Under the pieces are notes generated by a model. The model worked only from the letters and a program-made list of their open reading frames with translations, searched no databases and was not told the DNA's origin. Position numbers and translations under genes: made by a program. Shown piece by piece: positions 51,071 through 58,875 of a stretch of 64,000 nucleotides of DNA. The stretch lies in the NCBI GenBank assembly GCA_050950285.1, contig JBMNHG010000008.1:1-64000 (forward strand), written 5' to 3'. This DNA comes from Kiritimatiellia bacterium. GTDB taxonomy: Bacteria; Verrucomicrobiota; Kiritimatiellia; RFP12; JBMNHG01. The first letter of the stretch is position 1; each line of letters begins with the position of its first letter.

Positions 51071-53087
51071 CCGAAGTTCCAGCGGCTCTTTCATGCCCGA
51101 AACGGCCATATTTTCTTGATTTAGCGGCATTCCGGCACCCCTAAGGCAGCAAAATCCGTTCCATTTGCGCCCATGTAATTGTTAATAACTTTTTTGACGA
51201 AACACCATTTTTACGCTTGCATGAGACTGAAAGGTCTGCTAAATTGAGCCCATGTACATTGACATCGTGCCGAACCGCAAATCCCCGCCCGCAATCCTGC
51301 TGCGCGAGAGCTGCCGCGAGGGCGGGCGCACCGTCAAGCGCACGCTTGCCAACCTGTCGATGCTGCCGCCCGAGGCGGTGGCGGCGCTGCGCGCGGCGCT
51401 CAAGGGCGAGCATCTTGTGGAGGCCGACAGCCTTTTCGAGGTCGAGTCATCCCTGCCATGCGGCCACGTCAGAGCCGTCCGCACGGCAATGAGCCGGCTC
51501 GGCATGCGGGATCTGGTGTCGTCCAAGCCCTGCCCGGAGCGCGACATCGTGCTGGCGATGATAGCCCAGCGCATAATAGAGCCGGGCTCGAAGCTGGAGA
51601 CGGTCTCCCTGTTCGGGGACTCCACGCTCGCGCAGGAGTTCGGCGTGCAGGACGTGGACGAGAACGACCTTTATGCGGCGATGGACTGGCTCGCGGCCCG
51701 CCAGCCCTTCATCGAGCGCAAGCTGGCCGGGCGGCACCTTGCCGAGGGGGCGACAGTCCTGTACGACGTGTCGAGCAGCTCCTACTACGGCAAGCAATGC
51801 CCCCTGGCAAAGCGCGGCTACAACCGCGACGGCCTCAAGCTGCCCGGCATCGTCTACGGGCTTATGACCGATACCGACGGCAGGCCGGTCGCGGTGCGGG
51901 TGTATCCCGGCGACACCGCCGACCCGGTGACGGTGCCGGACCAGATCGACCGGCTGCGCGGGGGCTTCGGCATAGCGCGGTTCGTCTTCGTGGGTGACCG
52001 CGGCATGCTGACGAACACGCAGATCGACCGCCTGCGGCAGCAGGAGGGCTGCGGCTGGATATCCTGCCTGCGAAGCTCGGACATCCGCAGGCTGCTGGAG
52101 ACACGCGATCCCTCCGGTGCGCCGCTGTTCACGCAGGGCAACCTGGCCGAGATCATCCATCCCGACTTCCCCGGCGAGCGGCTGGTGGCCTGCTACAACC
52201 CGGTGCTGGCGATGGACCGCGCCCGCATGCGCGGCGAGCTGCTGGAGTCCACCGAGAAGGATCTCGCCAAGCTGCGCGACCATGTGGGGCGCCGGAGGAG
52301 GAAGCCCCTGACGGCAGCCGAGATCGGCGTCAGGGCGGGACGCGTGATCAACCGCTACAAGGTCGCCAAGCACTTCAGGCTGGACATCGCCGACAACCAC
52401 TTCGGCTGGGAGCGCGACACGGAATCCATCGCCCGCGAGGCCGCCCTGGACGGCATCTACGTCGTGCGCACCAGCGAGACGCCCGAGTCGCTTTCCGCAG
52501 AGGACGCGGTGCGCGCCTACAAGAGCCTGGGCGACGTCGAGCAGGCCTTCAGGACCTTCAAGGGCGTCGATCTGCTCGTCCGCCCGATCTACCACCGCCT
52601 GGAGGACCGCGTGCGCGCGCACGTGCTGCTGTGCATGCTCGCCTATTACGTGGAATGGCACATGCGCCAGGCCCTGGCCCCGCTGCTCTACGCCGACGAG
52701 GAACTGGAAGCCGCCCGCGCCAGCCGCGATCCCGTCGCCAAGGCGCAGCCCTCGGAAAACCTCAAGCGCAAGCGCGCCCGGAAACGCACCACTGACGGAC
52801 TGCGGCTCCGGCGCTGGGACGGGCTGCTTGGCGCGCTATCGACACAGGTGCGCAACACATGCTGTTTCGGAGAAGGCAGAACCGCCGTGCGCTTTACCCG
52901 CGACACGATGCCCAACGCCTTCCAGGCCAAAGCCTTCCGACTGCTCGAGGCGGACCACGCCTGCTGGCGGAACAACAAGGGCGTTTCCATGTAAGCGGAA
53001 CGGGAAAATGGCGCCAGAAAGCGCGTAGAATGCTTGCCTGCAAGGGTTTGCGAATGAGCAGGCTGTTGGAAATCGCTGGAACTTCGG
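51071..53087 (+). mobile_element. IS1634-family insertion sequence, complete (2017 bp)
   Basis: 14-bp terminal IRs CCGAAGTTCCAGCG (51071-51084) / CGCTGGAACTTCGG (53074-53087); 6-bp target duplication GTTAGG at 51065-51070 and 53088-53093. Confidence 0.92.
51252..52994 (+). CDS. IS1634-family DDE transposase
   Basis: LLRESCREGGR..KRTLANLS, LYDVSSSSYYG, FVGDRGM, DGIYVVRTS, VEQAFRTFK, RPIYHRLEDRVRAHV. Confidence 0.93.
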   Translation: MYIDIVPNRKSPPAILLRESCREGGRTVKRTLANLSMLPPEAVAALRAALKGEHLVEADSLFEVESSLPCGHVRAVRTAMSRLGMRDLVSSKPCPERDIVLAMIAQRIIEPGSKLETVSLFGDSTLAQEFGVQDVDENDLYAAMDWLAARQPFIERKLAGRHLAEGATVLYDVSSSSYYGKQCPLAKRGYNRDGLKLPGIVYGLMTDTDGRPVAVRVYPGDTADPVTVPDQIDRLRGGFGIARFVFVGDRGMLTNTQIDRLRQQEGCGWISCLRSSDIRRLLETRDPSGAPLFTQGNLAEIIHPDFPGERLVACYNPVLAMDRARMRGELLESTEKDLAKLRDHVGRRRRKPLTAAEIGVRAGRVINRYKVAKHFRLDIADNHFGWERDTESIAREAALDGIYVVRTSETPESLSAEDAVRAYKSLGDVEQAFRTFKGVDLLVRPIYHRLEDRVRAHVLLCMLAYYVEWHMRQALAPLLYADEELEAARASRDPVAKAQPSENLKRKRARKRTTDGLRLRRWDGLLGALSTQVRNTCCFGEGRTAVRFTRDTMPNAFQAKAFRLLEADHACWRNNKGVSM

Positions 53088-53114
53088 GTTAGGGCGCGAA
53101 GGGCGCGATTACTG

Positions 53115-53143
53115 TTGACGGCGCGCGGATTTTCCACTAATCT
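53115..53143 (+). promoter_or_regulatory. sigma70-type promoter of AAA ATPase
   Basis: TTGACG-N17-TAATCT. Confidence 0.6.
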
Positions 53144-53175
53144 AAGACCGTATTTTGAATTGGTGGGAAATCGGC

Positions 53176-54399
53176 ATGTATGTACGGCGGCATCTGGAAG
53201 AGGCGTTCAAGGAAGCCGGACGGTTTTTTCCGGCTCTTCTGGTGACGGGAGCGCGTCAGGTCGGCAAAACGACTTTTCTGCGCAAGATCGCCGAGGCCGA
53301 ACGCAGGTTTGTCTCGTTGGACGCGCCGGATATGCGTCAATTGGCGAGATCCGATCCGCGTCTTTTCTTGAGCCAGTACCCGCCGCCTGTCATCATCGAC
53401 GAGATCCAGTATGCGCCGGAACTGCTGCCCTACATCAAGGTGGCCATTGACGAGGCCCGGTTCGATAACAAGAAAAAAGCCGGTGGGTTGTTCTGGCTGA
53501 CGGGATCTCAACAGTTCCAGATGATGAAGGGGATTACCGAGTCGCTGGCGGGAAGGATCGGGATTTTCGAGCTTCACGGGCTTTCGAACCGCGAGCTTTC
53601 TAACACGGTGAACCGGCCTTTCCGCCCTGACACTTTCCAGGCTGACAACCCGGGGGAAACCTCGACTGCTGCCTTTTTCGAGCGTGTCTGGATGGGGGCG
53701 TTTCCTGAACTCGCCACGTCTTCCGCTGCCCGCTGGAGTGACTTTTACGGTTCCTACGTGCAGACGTACCTTGCCCGCGACGTGCGCGATCTTACGCAGG
53801 TGGCGGATTTGAACAGGTTCTATGCGTTCATCAAGGCCGTGGCCGCCCGCACCGGACAGATGCTGAATTACGCGAGTTTGGCGCGCGACGCCGATATCAG
53901 CCAGCCGACGGCGAAACAGTACGTAAGCGTTCTCGAGGCATCCGGGCTCGTGTTCCGGCTTTACCCCTATTTGCGGAATCATAGCAGACAGATGATTCGC
54001 ACGCCGAAAATCTATATGTTCGACAGCGGCCTTGCGGCGTACCTGACCGAATGGACGACCCCGGCCGTGATGGCATCGGGGGCGATGGCCGGGCAGTTTT
54101 TCGAGACATGGTGCGTGAGCGAGATTTTGAAGAGCTATGCCAACGCCGGGCTGCAGCCGCATGTCTATTACTACCGCGACAAGGACCAGCGCGAGATCGA
54201 CCTGATCATTGAACAGGACGGAACGCTTTACCCGGTTGAAATCAAGAAAGGCGCCACTTTCAGGCCGGATGACACGAAATCCTTTGGCGCACTCAAGCAG
54301 TTCGACAAACCGGTGGGGATGGGGGCGCTGGTCAGCCTTCATCCCGAACTGTTTCAGATCAGGCAGGACTGCATGGCCATCCCCGCCGTGCAATTGTAG
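53176..54399 (+). CDS. AAA+ ATPase with DUF4143 C-terminal domain
   Basis: TGARQVGKTT, IIDEIQYAP, LTGSQ, ESLAGRI, TYLARDV, PKIYMFDSGL, YYYRD..REIDLI, PVEIK. Confidence 0.9.
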   Translation: MYVRRHLEEAFKEAGRFFPALLVTGARQVGKTTFLRKIAEAERRFVSLDAPDMRQLARSDPRLFLSQYPPPVIIDEIQYAPELLPYIKVAIDEARFDNKKKAGGLFWLTGSQQFQMMKGITESLAGRIGIFELHGLSNRELSNTVNRPFRPDTFQADNPGETSTAAFFERVWMGAFPELATSSAARWSDFYGSYVQTYLARDVRDLTQVADLNRFYAFIKAVAARTGQMLNYASLARDADISQPTAKQYVSVLEASGLVFRLYPYLRNHSRQMIRTPKIYMFDSGLAAYLTEWTTPAVMASGAMAGQFFETWCVSEILKSYANAGLQPHVYYYRDKDQREIDLIIEQDGTLYPVEIKKGATFRPDDTKSFGALKQFDKPVGMGALVSLHPELFQIRQDCMAIPAVQL

Positions 54400-54497: not shown

Positions 54498-56475
54498 ACG
54501 ATTATTGCGACCACTCAGTGGCTCGCAATTAAGAGTGTAAAAGCCCTGCGCTGCCCTTGCGCCGCGAAATAGTCCCGAAGGGGCGGCCTCGTGCGCCGGT
54601 GCCAGGACAAGCGAATCGCCATATCGCTGGATAGCGCGCCTGATTGCGCTGTGCCATAGCCCCGAAGGGGCGGCCTCACCATAGCCCAGGGCAAGCGCAG
54701 CGCAGCCCTGGGTTTAGGAGCGCATAGGATCGTGGCCTGAAGGGCCACCTCAAAAATGGGCGGACGCGGCTTAAGGTGCCCCTTCAGGGCACGTGGATGT
54801 GGGCTGACATAGCCCCGAAGGGGCGGCCTCACCATAGCCCAGGGCAAGCGCAGCGCAGCCCTGGGTTCAAGAGCGCATAAAATCGTGGCCTGAAGGGCCA
54901 CTTCAAAAATGGCCTGACGCGGCTTGAGGTGCCCCTTCAGGGCACGTGGATGTGGGCTGACAAAGCCCCGAAGGGGCGGCCTCACCATAGCCCAGGGCAA
55001 GCGCAGCGCAGCCCTGGGTTCAGGAGCGCATAAAATCGTGGCCTTAAGGGCCACTTCAAAAATGGGCCGGACGCAGCTTGAAGTGCCCCTTCAGGGCACA
55101 TTTTTGCTGGCTGCGCTACCCAGGGCTGCGCTGCGCTTGCCCTGGGCTATGGTGCATCCGGCCCGTTGGGCCGGCGGCGCGGGGCTGATGCCCCCGCCCC
55201 GTACCATGATGAGCCGGCCCGTTGGGCCGGAGGGGCGGGGCTGACGGCCCCGCGCACAGGGGGCGCATGGGGTGTTTTTGGAATGAACGATTATTGCGAC
55301 CACTCAGTGGCTCGCAATTGAGAGGGTAAAAGCGCTGCGCTGCCCTTTCGCTGCGAAATAGCCCCGAAGGGGCGGCCTCGTGCGCCGGTGCCAGGACAAG
55401 CGAATCGCCATATCGCTGGATAGCGCGCCTGATTGCGCTGTGCCATAGCCCCGAAGGGGCGGCATCACCCTAGCCCAGGGCAAGCATAGCGCAGCCCTGG
55501 GTTCAGTAGCGCATAAAATCGTGGCCTGAAGGGCCACCTCAAACATTGGCCGGACGCAGCTTGAGGTGCCCCTTCAGGGCACGTTGATATGGGCTGACAT
55601 AGCCCCGAAGGGCGGCCTCACCATAGCCCAGGGCAAGCATAGCGCAGCCCTGGGTCCAGATGCGCATTTAATCGTGGCCTGAAGGGCCACTTCAAAAATG
55701 GCCTGACGCGGTTTGAGGTGCCCCTTCAGGGCACGTGGATGTGGGCAACGCTCCCCGGGGCTGCGCTTCGCTTGCCCTGGGCTATGGTGCATCCGGCCCT
55801 TTGGGCCGGAGGGGCGGGGCTGATGCCCCCGCCCCGTACCATGATGAGCCGGCCCTTTGGGCTGGAGGCGCGGGGCTGACGGCCCCGCGCACAGGGGGCG
55901 CATGGGGTGTTTTTTGGAATGAACGATTATTGCGACCACTCAGTGGCTCGCAATTGAGAGGGTAAAAGCGCTGCGCTGCCCTTTCGCTGCGAAATAGCCC
56001 CGAAGGGGCGGCCTCGTGCGCCGGTGCCAGGACAAGCGAATCGCCATATCGCTGGATAGCGCGCCTGATTGCGCTGTGCCATAGCCCCGAAGGGGCGGCC
56101 TCACCATAGCCCAGGGCAAGCGTAGCGCAGCCCTGGGTTTAGGAGCGCATATAATCGTGGCCTGAAGGGCCACCTCAAAAATGGCCGGACGCAGCTTGAG
56201 GTGCCCCTTCAGGGCACGTTGATATGGGCTGACATAGCCCCGAAGGGCGGCCTCACCATAGCCCAGGGCAAGCATAGCGCAGCCCTGGGTCCAGATGCGC
56301 ATTTAATCGTGGCCTGAAGGGCCACTTCAAAAATGGCCTGACGCGGTTTGAGGTGCCCCTTCAGGGCACGTGGATGTGGGCAACGCTCCCCGGGGCTGCG
56401 CTTCGCTTGCCCTGGGCTATGGTGCATCCGGCCCTTTGGGCCGGCCGGCGCGGGGCTGACGCCCCCGCCCCGTAC
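54498..56475. repeat. Hierarchical palindromic repeat array, left block: three higher-order units containing seven ~153-bp hairpin units
   Basis: Unit = GCCCCGAAGGGGC / AGCCCAGGGCAAGC..GCAGCCCTGGG / GTGGCCTGAAGGGCCAC / GTGCCCCTTCAGGGCAC at 54656, 54809, 54962, 55445, 55599, 56081, 56234; higher-order starts at 54498, 55287, 55923. Confidence 0.95.
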
Positions 56476-56669
56476 TGCCCTTTCGCGGCGAGGCACCATT
56501 TTTGTAAAATCACCTTTTTGGGGTTGTCGGATGGCCCTCGATATGGTAATTCTGGCCGTTCGTTTGGCCCGGTTGGGCTTTGGAATTGGAGCCTGCGGCG
56601 GCGATCAGACGGTTTCTCGGACGGATTCCCTCTTGTCGCCCGCAGCTCTGTTTCGTACTATACTGATTC

Positions 56670-56723
56670 ATGCCAAAACTCTTCGAATACTTTGTGCTAA
56701 TCATTGTACGGAGACTTCCATGA
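56670..56723 (+). pseudogene. Internally deleted DUF4160 (putative toxin) remnant
   Basis: 17-codon ORF MPKLFEYFVLIIVRRLP* with ATGA overlap into DUF2442; MPKLxEYFxLI resembles DUF4160 N-termini; TTGTCG-N17-TACTAT promoter just upstream. Confidence 0.6.
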
Positions 56724-57052
56724 GCCTGTCGCCTGGGATTCCCGTGGACATTGTGAGAGCCGAGTACCTCGGCGAGCATCGGTTGCGCCTGACTTTCAGC
56801 GATGGGCATGTCACGACGGTGGATTTCGGCTCGTTTTTGCGTGCCGCATTACACCCCGATGTTGCGAAATATTGTGATGAGAGCCTGTTTCGCGCCTATA
56901 CCTTGGCCTATGGCAATCTGGTCTGGGGTGACCATGAGTTGTGTTTTCCCATCGCGGATCTCTATGCGGGGAAGATCGATCATCGGGACGACGCGGATGG
57001 CGTCCAGGCGGTCGCGGAAACGCATGCGGCCTATGTTGAGGAAGAGAAGTGA
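56720..57052 (+). CDS. DUF2442 domain protein (putative antitoxin)
   Basis: RAEYLGEHRLRLTFSDG..VDF..FL, GNLVWGDHELCFPIADLY; GGAG RBS. Confidence 0.8.
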   Translation: MSLSPGIPVDIVRAEYLGEHRLRLTFSDGHVTTVDFGSFLRAALHPDVAKYCDESLFRAYTLAYGNLVWGDHELCFPIADLYAGKIDHRDDADGVQAVAETHAAYVEEEK

Positions 57053-57285
57053 TTTTGGACGCGGGTTTGAAGTGCCCCTTCAGGGCACGTTGTTGTTGGC
57101 TGACGCTCCCCGGGGCTGCGCTGCGCTTGCCCCGGGCTATGGTGCATCCGGCCCTTTGGGCCGGTGTTCCGCGAGCCGATGCTCTGGGTCGCGAGCGCAT
57201 GGGAGCACGGGTTTTCCAACCCGTGCCACGGACAGGAATGTCCGTGCCCCTGTTCCTTGGACGCATCGCCGGGCGTGCGTTACCC

Positions 57286-57910
57286 AAGCCCCGAAGGGGC
57301 GGCATCACCCTAGCCCAGGGCAAGCGCAGCGCAGCCCTGGGTCCAGATGCGAATTTAATCGTGGCCTGAAGGGCCACCTCAAAAAAATCCAAACCCCAAC
57401 CCAAACCACCACCAACCTCGACCGCCGGATGAACTGACCATGCCGCAATCCTTTTTCGAACTCTACGCGCACGTGGTATTTTCCACGAAAAACCGGGAAC
57501 GCTGGCTGGACGCGGCGATCCGCGACCGCGTGCATGCCTATCTGGCGACCGTGATGCGGAACGAGGGGTGTCCGTACGTGCATGTCGGCGGCGTGGAGGA
57601 TCATGTGCATCTGCTGGCGGGGCTGGGCAAGCAGGTCGTTCTGGTGGATCTGGTGGGCAGGGTGAAGCAGGAGAGTTCCAAGTTCGTGAAGACGCTCGGC
57701 GAGCGCTACGCGGGGTTCTACTGGCAGGCCGGCTACGGCGCGTTCTCGGTCGGGCCGACCCAGCGGGAGGACGTGGTGCGATATCTGGATCGGCAGGCGG
57801 AACATCATAAGCGGCGTTCCTTTCAGGAGGAGCTGCGGGCATTTTTGGACAAGTACGGGGTTTCGTATGACGAGCGCTACATGTGGGATTGAGGTGCCCC
57901 TTCAGGGCAC
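57286..57910 (+). mobile_element. Autonomous Y1-HUH (IS200-like/RAYT-like) element: array unit with transposase inserted between inverted hairpins
   Basis: Left hairpins A-B-C at 57286-57382, tnpA, right hairpin D at 57889-57910 overlapping the stop codon. Confidence 0.75.
57440..57892 (+). CDS. tnpA: IS200/IS605-family Y1 HUH transposase (TnpA / REP-associated-like)
   Basis: HVVFSTKNR, HUH motif DHVHLL, WQAGYGAFSV, catalytic YxxxQ (YLDRQ). Confidence 0.93.
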   Translation: MPQSFFELYAHVVFSTKNRERWLDAAIRDRVHAYLATVMRNEGCPYVHVGGVEDHVHLLAGLGKQVVLVDLVGRVKQESSKFVKTLGERYAGFYWQAGYGAFSVGPTQREDVVRYLDRQAEHHKRRSFQEELRAFLDKYGVSYDERYMWD

Positions 57911-58797
57911 GTTTTTGCGGGCTGACATAGCCCCGAAGGGGCGGCATCACCCTGGCCCAGGGCAAGCGCAGCGCAGCCCTGGGTCAGGGGCGAATGTGAT
58001 CGTGGCCTGAAGGGCCACTTCAAACATTGGCGGACGCGGCTTGAGGTGCCTCTTCAGGGCACATCGACGCTGGGTGCAATAGCCCCGAAGGGGCGGCCTC
58101 ACCCTAGCCCAGGGCAAGCGCAGCGCAGCCCTGGGTCAGGGGCGAATGTGATCGTGGCCTGAAGGGCCACTTCAAACATTGGCGGACGCGGCTTGAGGAG
58201 CCCCTTCAGGGCACATTTTTGCTGGCTGGCGCCACCCGGGGCTACGCTGCGCTTGCCCCGGGCTATGGTGCATCCGGCCCGTTGGGCCGACGGCGCGGGG
58301 CTGGTGCTCCCGCCCCGTACCATGATGAGCCGGCCCATTGGGCCGGCGGCGCGGGGCTGGTGCCCCCGCCCCGTACCATGATGAGCCGGCCCGTTGGGTC
58401 GGCGGCGCGGGGCTGGTGCCCCCGCCCCGTACCATGATGAGCCGGCCCGTTGGGCCGGCGGCGCGAGGCTGGCGCCCCCGCTCACGGGGGGGGCACAGGG
58501 TGTTTTTGGGGATGGACGATTATTGCGACCACTCAGTGGTTCGCAATGTAGAGGGTAAAAGCCCTGCGCTGCCCCTTCGCTGTGCCATAGCCCCGAAGGG
58601 GCGCCCTCACCATAGCCCAGGGCAAGCATAGCGCAGCCCTGGGTTTGGTAGCGCATAGGATCGTGGCCTGAAGGGCCACTTCAAACATTGGCGGCCGCGG
58701 CTTGAGGTGCCCCTTCAGGGCACATCGACGCTGGGTGCAATAGCCCCGAAGGGGCGGCATCACCCTAGCCCAGGGCAAGCGCAGCGCAGCCCTGGGT
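57889..58797. repeat. Hierarchical palindromic repeat array, right block, including a 56-bp tandem
   Basis: ~153-bp units at 57927, 58079, 58587, partial at 58740; 56-bp units at 58274, 58330, 58386, 58442; higher-order start motif at 58516. Confidence 0.95.
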
Positions 58798-58818
58798 TGC
58801 GGGAGGCCCGAGTCCGCT

Positions 58819-58875
58819 CCAAAAATCGCGTTTCCCAAAAATCGCGTTGAGAATGGCGGGAGAAAAGGGTATTCT
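58819..58875 (+). promoter_or_regulatory. grpE-dnaJ promoter with 14-bp direct repeat
   Basis: CCAAAAATCGCGTT x2 (58819, 58835) overlapping TTGAGA-N17-TATTCT. Confidence 0.55.

Follow-up and report, generated by a model that had tools for sequence, protein, structure and literature searches.

Organization of the locus

We analyzed a window of 64,000 nucleotides (G000:C8:1-64000) from the genome of a Kiritimatiellia bacterium (4.05 Mb in 12 contigs, 66% G+C), in which a 4.3 kb stretch at positions 54498-58797 consists almost entirely of hairpin repeats. The stretch lies between a gene for a DUF4143 AAA ATPase (53155-54399) and grpE (from 58877). It contains 12 forward and 5 reverse copies of a ~95-nt module of three hairpins, A, B and C, together with seven lone reverse C hairpins (termed D in the original prediction, which had been made from the sequence) and one gene, tnpA, encoding a 150-aa enzyme of the Y1/HUH type. 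The original prediction described tnpA as an autonomous element inserted in one unit of its own hairpin array; here we examine the array, the enzyme and the relation between the two.

The anatomy of the unit was exactly as predicted. Each unit reads A (GCCCC-GAA-GGGGC), B (CCCAGGGC..GCCCTGGG), C (GTGGCCTGAAGGGCCACYTCAA), a spacer of 17-18 nt and D. Tandem Repeats Finder reported a period of 153 at 54655-55099 (2.9 copies, 94% matches) and a period of 152 at 56080-56381 and 57889-58228, with 89-94% matches overall. We counted 11 copies of C and 12 copies of D between 54732 and 58723. Ten C-D pairs had the short spacer, with C at 54732, 54885, 55038, 55521, 55674, 56157, 56309, 58002, 58154 and 58663. 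The spacer of the eleventh pair (C at 57361, D at 57889) measured 506 bp (57383-57888) and carried the tnpA open reading frame (ORF; 57440-57892), the TGA of which (57890-57892) falls within D. The gene therefore stands between C and D of a single unit with gene-less units all around it, as had been claimed. The gene-bearing and gene-less units had exact borders in common, and their sole difference was what lay at the sharp border ...YTCAA, spacer or tnpA, TTGAGG....

Five full reverse modules (starting at 55075, 55710, 56345, 57064 and 58190) consisted of C', B' and an A-like hairpin. The original prediction had five units continuing into an inverted B and an A-like hairpin; all five reverse modules are present, but only four close a short-spacer unit to give a long palindrome, while the fifth (57064-57162) lies behind a DUF2442 ORF without any C to pair with. 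In its natural form the unit consists of A-B-C opposite an inverted C'-B'-A', and D is a shortened right end. The reverse complement of D was said to differ from C only by a compensatory swap. Stem positions 4 and 14 were indeed swapped (G-C to C-G), but the Y position was changed as well. The hairpin thus exists in two forms, C with a GGCC stem and D with a GCCC stem, each of which keeps its own pairing. Folding as single-stranded DNA (ssDNA) relative to shuffled sequences gave a z of -4.1 for the 153-nt unit and of -12 for the full doublet, and C-spacer-D folded into a single long hairpin with internal mismatches.

The module accompanies the gene family

We examined 80 loci encoding relatives of TnpA at 43-55% identity, from Thermoanaerobaculia, Verrucomicrobiota, Planctomycetota, Bacteroidota, Chlamydiota, Armatimonadota and other hosts. 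By eye, most of these loci showed A-like, B-like (after a conserved AG) and C-like hairpins, then the gene, then C', B' and A'. We built a covariance model, R1, of 90 positions and 19 pairs, seeded by 14 modules of the relatives and no window sequence, since the MAFFT alignment had shifted hairpin A of the window copies by one column against that of the relatives. At E <= 0.01 the model gave 267 matches in the window and the 80 loci; the 20 matches in the 64-kb window all lay within 54659-58825. The original prediction would have suffered if TnpA orthologues generally lacked these hairpins, and at least one module was found in 79 of the 80 loci. A forward module no more than 200 nt upstream and a reverse module no more than 200 nt downstream of the gene occurred together in 55 of the 80; the remaining loci had the left module only (10), the right module only (9) or none in the proper orientation (6). 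The median gap between module and gene was 26 nt upstream and 13.5 nt downstream. Far from being peculiar to this genome, the module accompanies the gene family across many phyla.

Covariation was measured on the 150 best R1 matches (63 sources), in an alignment fitted to the model, which favours pairing. In this set 97.1% of 2772 stem cells were paired, whereas shuffled controls reached 73.8% and slid partners no more than 53%. Double changes occurred in 18 of the 19 pairs. There were 41 G.T cells (1.5%) and 10 A.C cells. The scarcity of G.T cells suits DNA hairpins, and their excess over A.C weakly suggests that folding occurs on the A-to-C strand. The hairpins are selected for pairing both here, as seen in the C/D swap, and across the 63 sources, which bears out the selection on the fold that was originally proposed. 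Among the unpaired bases, conservation was seen in the AG that precedes B (97-99%), the central A of loop A, the TGAA of loop C and an A at the fourth base past C; no further flanking motif was conserved among the R1 matches. We also considered deriving cleavage sites by analogy to IS608, and dropped this approach as there was no conserved flanking motif to support one.

TnpA belongs to a low-copy Y1 subclass

TnpA matched Pfam PF01797 (Y1_Tnp) at 75.6 bits over residues 5-119 (gathering cut-off 23). It passed the NCBIfam IS200 model NF033573 marginally (58.5 bits, cut-off 55) and fell below the cut-off of NF047646 (17.6 bits, cut-off 80), the model for REP-associated tyrosine transposases (RAYT; REP, repetitive extragenic palindrome). 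Its motifs were H55-V-H57, W95-Q96 and Y115-x3-Q119-x2-H122-H123, and all eight named residues (H55, H57, W95, Q96, Y115, Q119, H122 and H123) were invariant or nearly so in an alignment of 43 sequences, chosen for spread from the listed homologues (30 of 120) and the loci above (13 of 80). An AlphaFold (AF2) model generated from this alignment had a pLDDT of 92 and located Y115 in a helix at 106-117. Foldseek matched the model to ISDra2 TnpA (E 7e-9), IS608 TnpA (4e-8) and the E. coli RAYT 4er8 (1.2e-5). When solved structures were searched by sequence, the nearest were the Deinococcus ISDra2 TnpA entries (E about 1e-5), and the E. coli RAYT structure was not reached at E <= 10. The identification as a Y1/HUH transposase thus held, by both the Pfam score and the predicted fold. 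The family comprises at least 1772 protein clusters at E <= 1e-10, whose source names read 'IS200/IS605 family transposase' or, via COG, 'REP element-mobilizing transposase RayT'.

Judged by hidden Markov model scores, motifs and structure matches, TnpA is a Y1/HUH enzyme related to IS200, of TnpA-Y1 subclass 1.2. We placed it in this subclass because its motifs match the signatures in Table 1 of Quentin, Siguier, Chandler & Fichant 2018 (PMC6006769). The signatures given there are DH[IV]H, WQ and Y---Q--HH, a length of ~148 aa, a conserved C-terminal tail and a low copy number, with 36% identity between copies; the motifs, length, C-terminal tail and copy number of the TnpA of this locus agree with them. 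The entries of that survey for subclass 1.2 mark it 'REP: no' and state that it 'does not share IS properties', and they describe it without REP-like or terminal secondary structures, whereas modules stand beside 79 of 80 genes in our set. This extends the published description and does not exclude membership. The hosts in our set were Acidobacteriota, Verrucomicrobiota, Planctomycetota, Chlamydiota and others.

The genome had one full copy of tnpA. Two partial Y1_Tnp-like matches, at C2:875448-875681 (41.5 bits) and C8:340721-340951 (22.3 bits), lay inside open frames of 440 and 647 aa and may be fused or decayed Y1 domains.

Distribution of modules within and between genomes

In the genome-wide motif search called for by the original prediction, Infernal and nhmmer each found 30 modules in this genome, 17 in the locus and 13 elsewhere, a concentration that speaks against chance. 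Among the 13 outside modules are five solo copies, which stop abruptly at ...TCAA like the units of the array, and a 328-bp tandem pair on contigs C10 and C11. In two of the solo modules, C8:831733-831820 and C8:572757-572843, hairpins A and C were nearly identical to each other; these two share at least 70 nt beyond C and are therefore part of a larger repeat.

Modules outnumbered TnpA-like genes in five other genomes, with at least 143, 72, 69, 12 and 5 modules against 8, 8, 5, 4 and 1 genes, respectively (for the first genome, 150 of 2751 candidates were scored). The TnpA-like proteins of these genomes were 28-52% identical to the TnpA of this locus. An Acidobacteriota chromosome had many gene-less inverted doublets with the same GGCC/GCCC pair of C forms, and their C-C' spacers varied in sequence and in length, from 13 to 75 nt (9 aligned).

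Within the same order, 5 of 40 genomes had the gene, with a best identity of 51%; in other phyla identity reached 55%. All five genomes with the gene had modules, and 31 of the 35 without it had none, although many of these metagenome-assembled genomes (MAGs) are incomplete. The TnpA profile found no match in the other four, G030, G039, G021 and G045, which are incomplete MAGs. In G006, a genome of the same genus, neither module nor TnpA was found, which is no proof of absence in an assembly 92% complete in 170 contigs. An empty site could not be read in G006: grpE-dnaJ was present at 74% identity with a different gene upstream. The G000 orthologue of that upstream gene lies 550 kb away, which puts the array at a synteny break.

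A REPtron-like reading of the locus

We favour, as reasonably probable, the reading that this is a REPtron-like locus, in which a single-copy subclass 1.2 Y1 gene lies between inverted copies of the three-hairpin module that its product is predicted to act on. REPtrons consist of RAYT (TnpA-REP) genes flanked by inverted REPs, arranged as REPINs (REP doublets) or bacterial interspersed mosaic elements (BIMEs), in E. coli and Pseudomonas, according to the part of PMC6006769 that treats them. The locus resembles them in its low-copy Y1 gene between inverted hairpin repeats, in repeats that also occur as gene-less inverted doublets and clusters, and in the presence of two related forms of hairpin, much as the E. 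coli REPtron has its Y and Z2 REPs. The tandem clusters of alternating REPs known as E. coli BIME-2 are the nearest match to the 153-bp array. REPtrons have reportedly been studied by Bertels & Rainey in 2011 (PMC3116915) and by Ton-Hoang/Messing in 2012 (PMC3479197). The locus differs from REPtrons in that the protein is of class 1 (Y---Q--HH) and not class 2 (Y---NP), the repeat is a ~95-nt composite of three hairpins and not one REP, and dispersed copies are few in this genome. There is also no conserved GT[AG]G foot: GTGG opens the C hairpin in the window, and the foot is not conserved in the C hairpins of relatives. Nor is the system kept vertically, judging by the 5 of 40 same-order genomes and the negative same-genus genome, many of these MAGs being incomplete. 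The best fit is that the system functions like a RAYT with its REPs, being no RAYT by sequence and no IS200 by copy number or end geometry. The original statement that the locus departs both from canonical IS200 and from GTAG-REP RAYT loci is borne out by copy number, inverted flanks and motifs.

The gene lies between inverted copies of the module, and a further 15 modules without a gene and six further lone hairpins are stacked around it. On the REPtron-like reading, the enzyme is predicted to bind the module hairpins as ssDNA, and would likely cut and rejoin beside them as REP-associated transposases do with REPs. Recognition would be of C/C' and perhaps also of A, which resembles C and lies on the same strand. 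Cutting and joining may take place at the borders, after YTCAA and before TTGAGG, since this is the sole place where gene-bearing and gene-less units differ. Nicks there, or plain unequal recombination between units, could build the tandem array, and growth of the stack was likely, at least in part, tandem segmental duplication. The two forms, GGCC in C and GCCC in D, might make the left hairpin distinguishable from the right and allow each to fold on its own.

Several observations weigh against this reading. TnpA fails the sequence criteria of RAYTs: in place of the class 2 motif Y---NP it has Y-L-D-R-Q, and the RAYT model scored 17.6 against 80. Most module copies in this genome are local and not dispersed. 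The clearest step of array growth needs no transposase: block 55289-55834 is 97.8% identical over 547 bp to its neighbour, 55925-56470, which implies segmental tandem duplication in at least one step. The module adjoining tnpA is 83-91% identical to the others and is not their closest relative. Two genomes of the same order, G030 and G039, had 75 and at least 106 modules with no TnpA found by protein query or profile; as both are 93% complete and in 320 and 470 contigs, respectively, the gene may be unassembled. Finally, a Chlamydiales MAG, G004 (L106-L115), had near-identical dispersed doublets within longer inverted-repeat elements of ~330-400 bp. These elements were flanked by direct repeats of ~10 bp that varied between copies, as seen in alignments of 4 and 6 copies selected for their equal scores. 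Such flanks are the mark of a miniature inverted-repeat transposable element (MITE) of the DDE type and not of Y1 transposition, so that modules can travel in other ways. Every copy of one G004 element family appears to lie within or next to a further small G+C-rich hairpin.

Parts of the original interpretation fared poorly. It had minimal copies amplified locally by the transposase, and the duplicated block points instead to segmental duplication, while dispersed copies occur in other genomes. The label of autonomous element is doubtful given one copy here, few paralogues elsewhere (28-52% identical to this protein) and flanks that are inverted and not on the same strand. The observation itself was real and is confirmed; its interpretation is partly supported.

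A true insertion sequence (IS) of the IS200/IS605 type, with A-B-C and C'-B'-A' as its ends, mobile as one entire unit and with the gene-less units as MITE-like derivatives moved in trans, corresponds to the original autonomous-element reading and is rather unlikely. The likeness to IS608 and ISDra2 extends to the fold, the HUH/Y chemistry and the nearest solved structures, and TnpA is nearer to their TnpA proteins than to RAYT in both fold and sequence. It passes the IS200 model (58.5 against 55), the exact borders common to gene-bearing and gene-less units would suit an element, and the patchy distribution (5 of 40 same-order genomes, best identity 51%, with 55% in other phyla) fits horizontal transfer. 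Small hairpins adjoin the gene in both, and hairpins A and C of a module resemble each other and lie on one strand, being nearly identical in the two solo copies. In IS200/IS605 elements, the hairpins of both ends are read on a single strand. In contrast, the modules flanking tnpA are inverted and thus on opposite strands, with three hairpins per side and tandem arrays, and no tnpB was seen in the locus. The gene is in one copy here, and the 1-8 copies in each of five other genomes are only 28-52% identical to the query, in keeping with the low copy number, 36% identity between copies and lack of IS properties in the published entries for the subclass (PMC6006769).

The modules could also be an older palindromic repeat family, dispersed through host recombination or other transposases, which the Y1 gene targets or in whose centre it landed with no role in copying. 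The inverted repeats and ~10-bp direct repeats around the dispersed G004 doublets, the modules without the gene in G030, G039, G021 and G045, the segmental duplication within the array and the two solo modules inside a longer shared repeat all fit such a history. We nevertheless regard it as improbable, because 55 of 80 loci, from different phyla, share a tight and symmetric layout in which the gaps measure tens of nt, and modules occur in all five same-order genomes with the gene as compared to 4 of 35 without it. Moreover, landing in the centre of a palindrome of its own type would still imply that the enzyme recognizes the hairpin.

Going beyond the REPtron-like reading, subclass 1.2 enzymes might be site-specific machines that nick and rejoin ssDNA, building tandem arrays of their own module beside the gene, with the junction after YTCAA serving as a defined slot for new DNA such as tnpA, unrelated spacers of 13-75 nt or nested hairpin pairs. 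We consider this extension doubtful. The original prediction had suggested a cargo site between C and D; the variable C-C' spacers of the Acidobacteriota genome lend this slight support, but no cargo gene besides tnpA was seen. On the extended reading, an abundant 'orphan sRNA' family would be the trace left by a self-organising system of DNA repeats, separate from IS200 and from RAYT/REPIN alike. More immediately, the module offers a predicted cognate DNA substrate for a widespread, unstudied group of HUH enzymes, for which the entries of the sole published survey reported no repeats. The locus is also a natural test set, with one gene-bearing and ten gene-less units that have the same borders, a pair of hairpin forms set apart by a single swapped base pair, and both truncated and full right ends. 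It puts binding, cleavage and left/right discrimination within reach of a few oligonucleotides.

Relation to the Acido-Lenti-1 motif

Read on the minus strand, hairpins A and B correspond to Rfam family RF01687 (Acido-Lenti-1). The window had 13 matches, four at 37.1-37.3 bits (gathering score 37) and nine at 22.9-36.8 bits. A scan of 20 of the 80 loci gave matches in 11, and each of the 24 matches corresponded to hairpins A+B of an R1 module, on the opposite strand; in one locus, L007, the family scored 46.6 bits on both sides of the gene. Acido-Lenti-1 is listed in Table 1 of Weinberg 2010 (PMC2864571) as a probable non-cis-regulatory RNA of Acidobacteria and Lentisphaerae, and in the sections of its supplements that bear on the motif the name is confined to tables, alignments and drawings. 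Among titles and abstract openings, a literature search found no tie between the motif and a Y1 gene. The Rfam family shares with our module hairpins B and A and the conserved GGCUA linker; it differs in reading the other strand, in being called a small RNA (sRNA), in lacking hairpin C and in making no mention of the Y1 gene.

The Acido-Lenti-1 'RNA' is likely a DNA repeat and the predicted substrate of a Y1 enzyme, so that an Rfam family of unknown function since 2010 would be explained as part of such a repeat. The reverse possibility, that the modules act as RNA, either as the Acido-Lenti-1 sRNA or as leader or terminator structures controlling tnpA, appears very improbable. The Rfam entry itself and the strong covariation would suit an RNA, as would the T-run found just after some D copies. 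However, the copies lie in both orientations, as inverted pairs and tandem arrays, and the third conserved hairpin is omitted from the Rfam motif. The excess of G.T over A.C cells (41 against 10) on the modelled strand could likewise be taken for RNA pairing, but G.T makes up 1.5% of stem cells and the excess is on the strand opposite to that of Rfam. A metatranscriptome run had contigs over parts of the locus; contigs of an RNA library are no proof of transcription, and this run (X20) holds a small share of the stretch.

Array growth and assembly

When the eleven full A-B-C modules were compared, mutual identity was 83-100%, with neighbours most alike. Each duplicated block opens with a repeat, E, of 75 nt with its own 26-nt hairpin. 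The genome has four copies of E, all in the locus and one at the head of each super-unit (starting at 54498, ~55267, ~55923 and ~58516). E was absent from 114 other loci searched. Its summed depth in metagenome contigs was ~45-55x that of the flanks, and the contigs of one RNA library also cover it; E is therefore probably also present in further organisms or elements of these communities.

Same-orientation tandem arrays beside the gene occurred in 4 of the 80 loci (L013, L043, L044 and L047), with periods of 160, 125, ~180 and 132 nt and 4-6 units. The linkers of L013 and L043 were unlike those of this locus. The formation of arrays next to the gene therefore appears to characterize the family.

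The read evidence consisted of Logan short-read contigs, which are fragmented in the array, so the unit count rests on the assembly. Parts of the stretch occur in 20 runs from 16 studies, and the organism is present in bioreactor and digester communities. Contigs from three runs of three studies, one of which may be the source sample, bridged 57314-57984 (C-tnpA-D-A-B) and the DUF2442 junction at 56461-57089. The summed depth of A-B was ~18x that of the flank in two runs; as depth is not copy number, it was not used as evidence. The sequence comes from a MAG, and short-read contigs are interrupted all along the array. Even so, an assembly artefact made from a single element, the mis-assembly that the original prediction had allowed for, is scarcely credible, since the units differ (83-100% identity) and have distinct junctions, the contigs of three runs bridge the tnpA unit and the DUF2442 junction, the contig is 834 kb long and similar arrays occur in four other assemblies.

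Features of the array and neighbouring observations

Table 1. Features of the hairpin array at positions 54498-58797 of the window, with the basis of each call.
Feature	Position	Strand	Basis
E module copy 1, 75-nt repeat with own hairpin	54498..54572	+	Sequence; 4 exact genome copies, all in this locus
A-B-C module 1	54659..54756	+	R1 65.7 bits; A+B = RF01687 on minus strand, 37.1 bits
Lone C' hairpin (D), 17 nt past C	54771..54792	-	C/D motif search
A-B-C module 2	54812..54909	+	R1 66.6 bits
Lone C' hairpin	54924..54945	-	C/D motif search
A-B-C module 3	54965..55062	+	R1 61.5 bits
Full reverse module C'-B'-A', long palindrome with module 3	55075..55172	-	R1 60.6 bits; ssDNA fold z = -12
A-B-C module 4	55448..55545	+	R1 65.2 bits
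Lone C' hairpin	55561..55582	-	C/D motif search
A-B-C module 5, 1-nt deletion in A	55602..55698	+	R1 53.6 bits; 100% identity to module 7
Full reverse module	55710..55807	-	R1 57.0 bits
A-B-C module 6	56084..56181	+	R1 66.6 bits
Lone C' hairpin	56196..56217	-	C/D motif search
A-B-C module 7	56237..56333	+	R1 53.6 bits
Full reverse module	56345..56442	-	R1 57.0 bits
DUF2442 ORF, 110 aa, within array	56720..57052	+	Pfam PF10387, 31.4 bits
Orphan full reverse module, 12 nt past DUF2442 stop, no C partner	57064..57162	-	R1 64.9 bits
A-B-C module 8, left flank of tnpA	57288..57385	+	R1 64.9 bits
tnpA, 150-aa Y1/HUH enzyme, assigned to TnpA-Y1 subclass 1.2	57440..57892	+	Pfam, NCBIfam, motifs, predicted fold
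C' hairpin, right flank of tnpA, overlaps stop codon	57889..57910	-	Sequence
A-B-C module 9	57930..58026	+	R1 57.2 bits
Lone C' hairpin	58041..58062	-	C/D motif search
A-B-C module 10	58082..58178	+	R1 62.2 bits
Full reverse module	58190..58288	-	R1 56.3 bits
56-bp tandem repeat, 3.7 copies: A' hairpin and second G+C-rich hairpin	58274..58481	.	Tandem Repeats Finder
A-B-C module 11	58590..58687	+	R1 63.2 bits
Lone C' hairpin	58702..58723	-	C/D motif search
A-B-C module 12, ends after B; unique DNA and grpE next	58743..58797	+	R1 37.3 bits; RF01687 36.6 bits

The DUF2442 ORF is placed like tnpA, 12 nt before a reverse module, with no left module; it had a weak NCBIfam match to the antitoxin DhiA (23.9 bits, cut-off 200). 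Two further hairpins (~57190-57250; region 57126-57282) recur, together with an A-B-C module, in the 328-bp tandem repeats at C10:49.4-50.0 kb and C11:0.6-1.3 kb. These hairpins had the highest summed depth of the stretch in three runs, ~70-95x that of the flanks. We also noted short joints in which D is followed by 16 other letters and then the E module (20-21 nt on a side), which may come from other strains or organisms. A gene for a DDE_Tnp_1 transposase (580 aa) and the DUF4143 AAA ATPase gene lie immediately upstream of the array (51252-54399). Contig C9 (5854 bases) has 34% G+C, as compared to ~66% elsewhere, and may be foreign or mis-binned.

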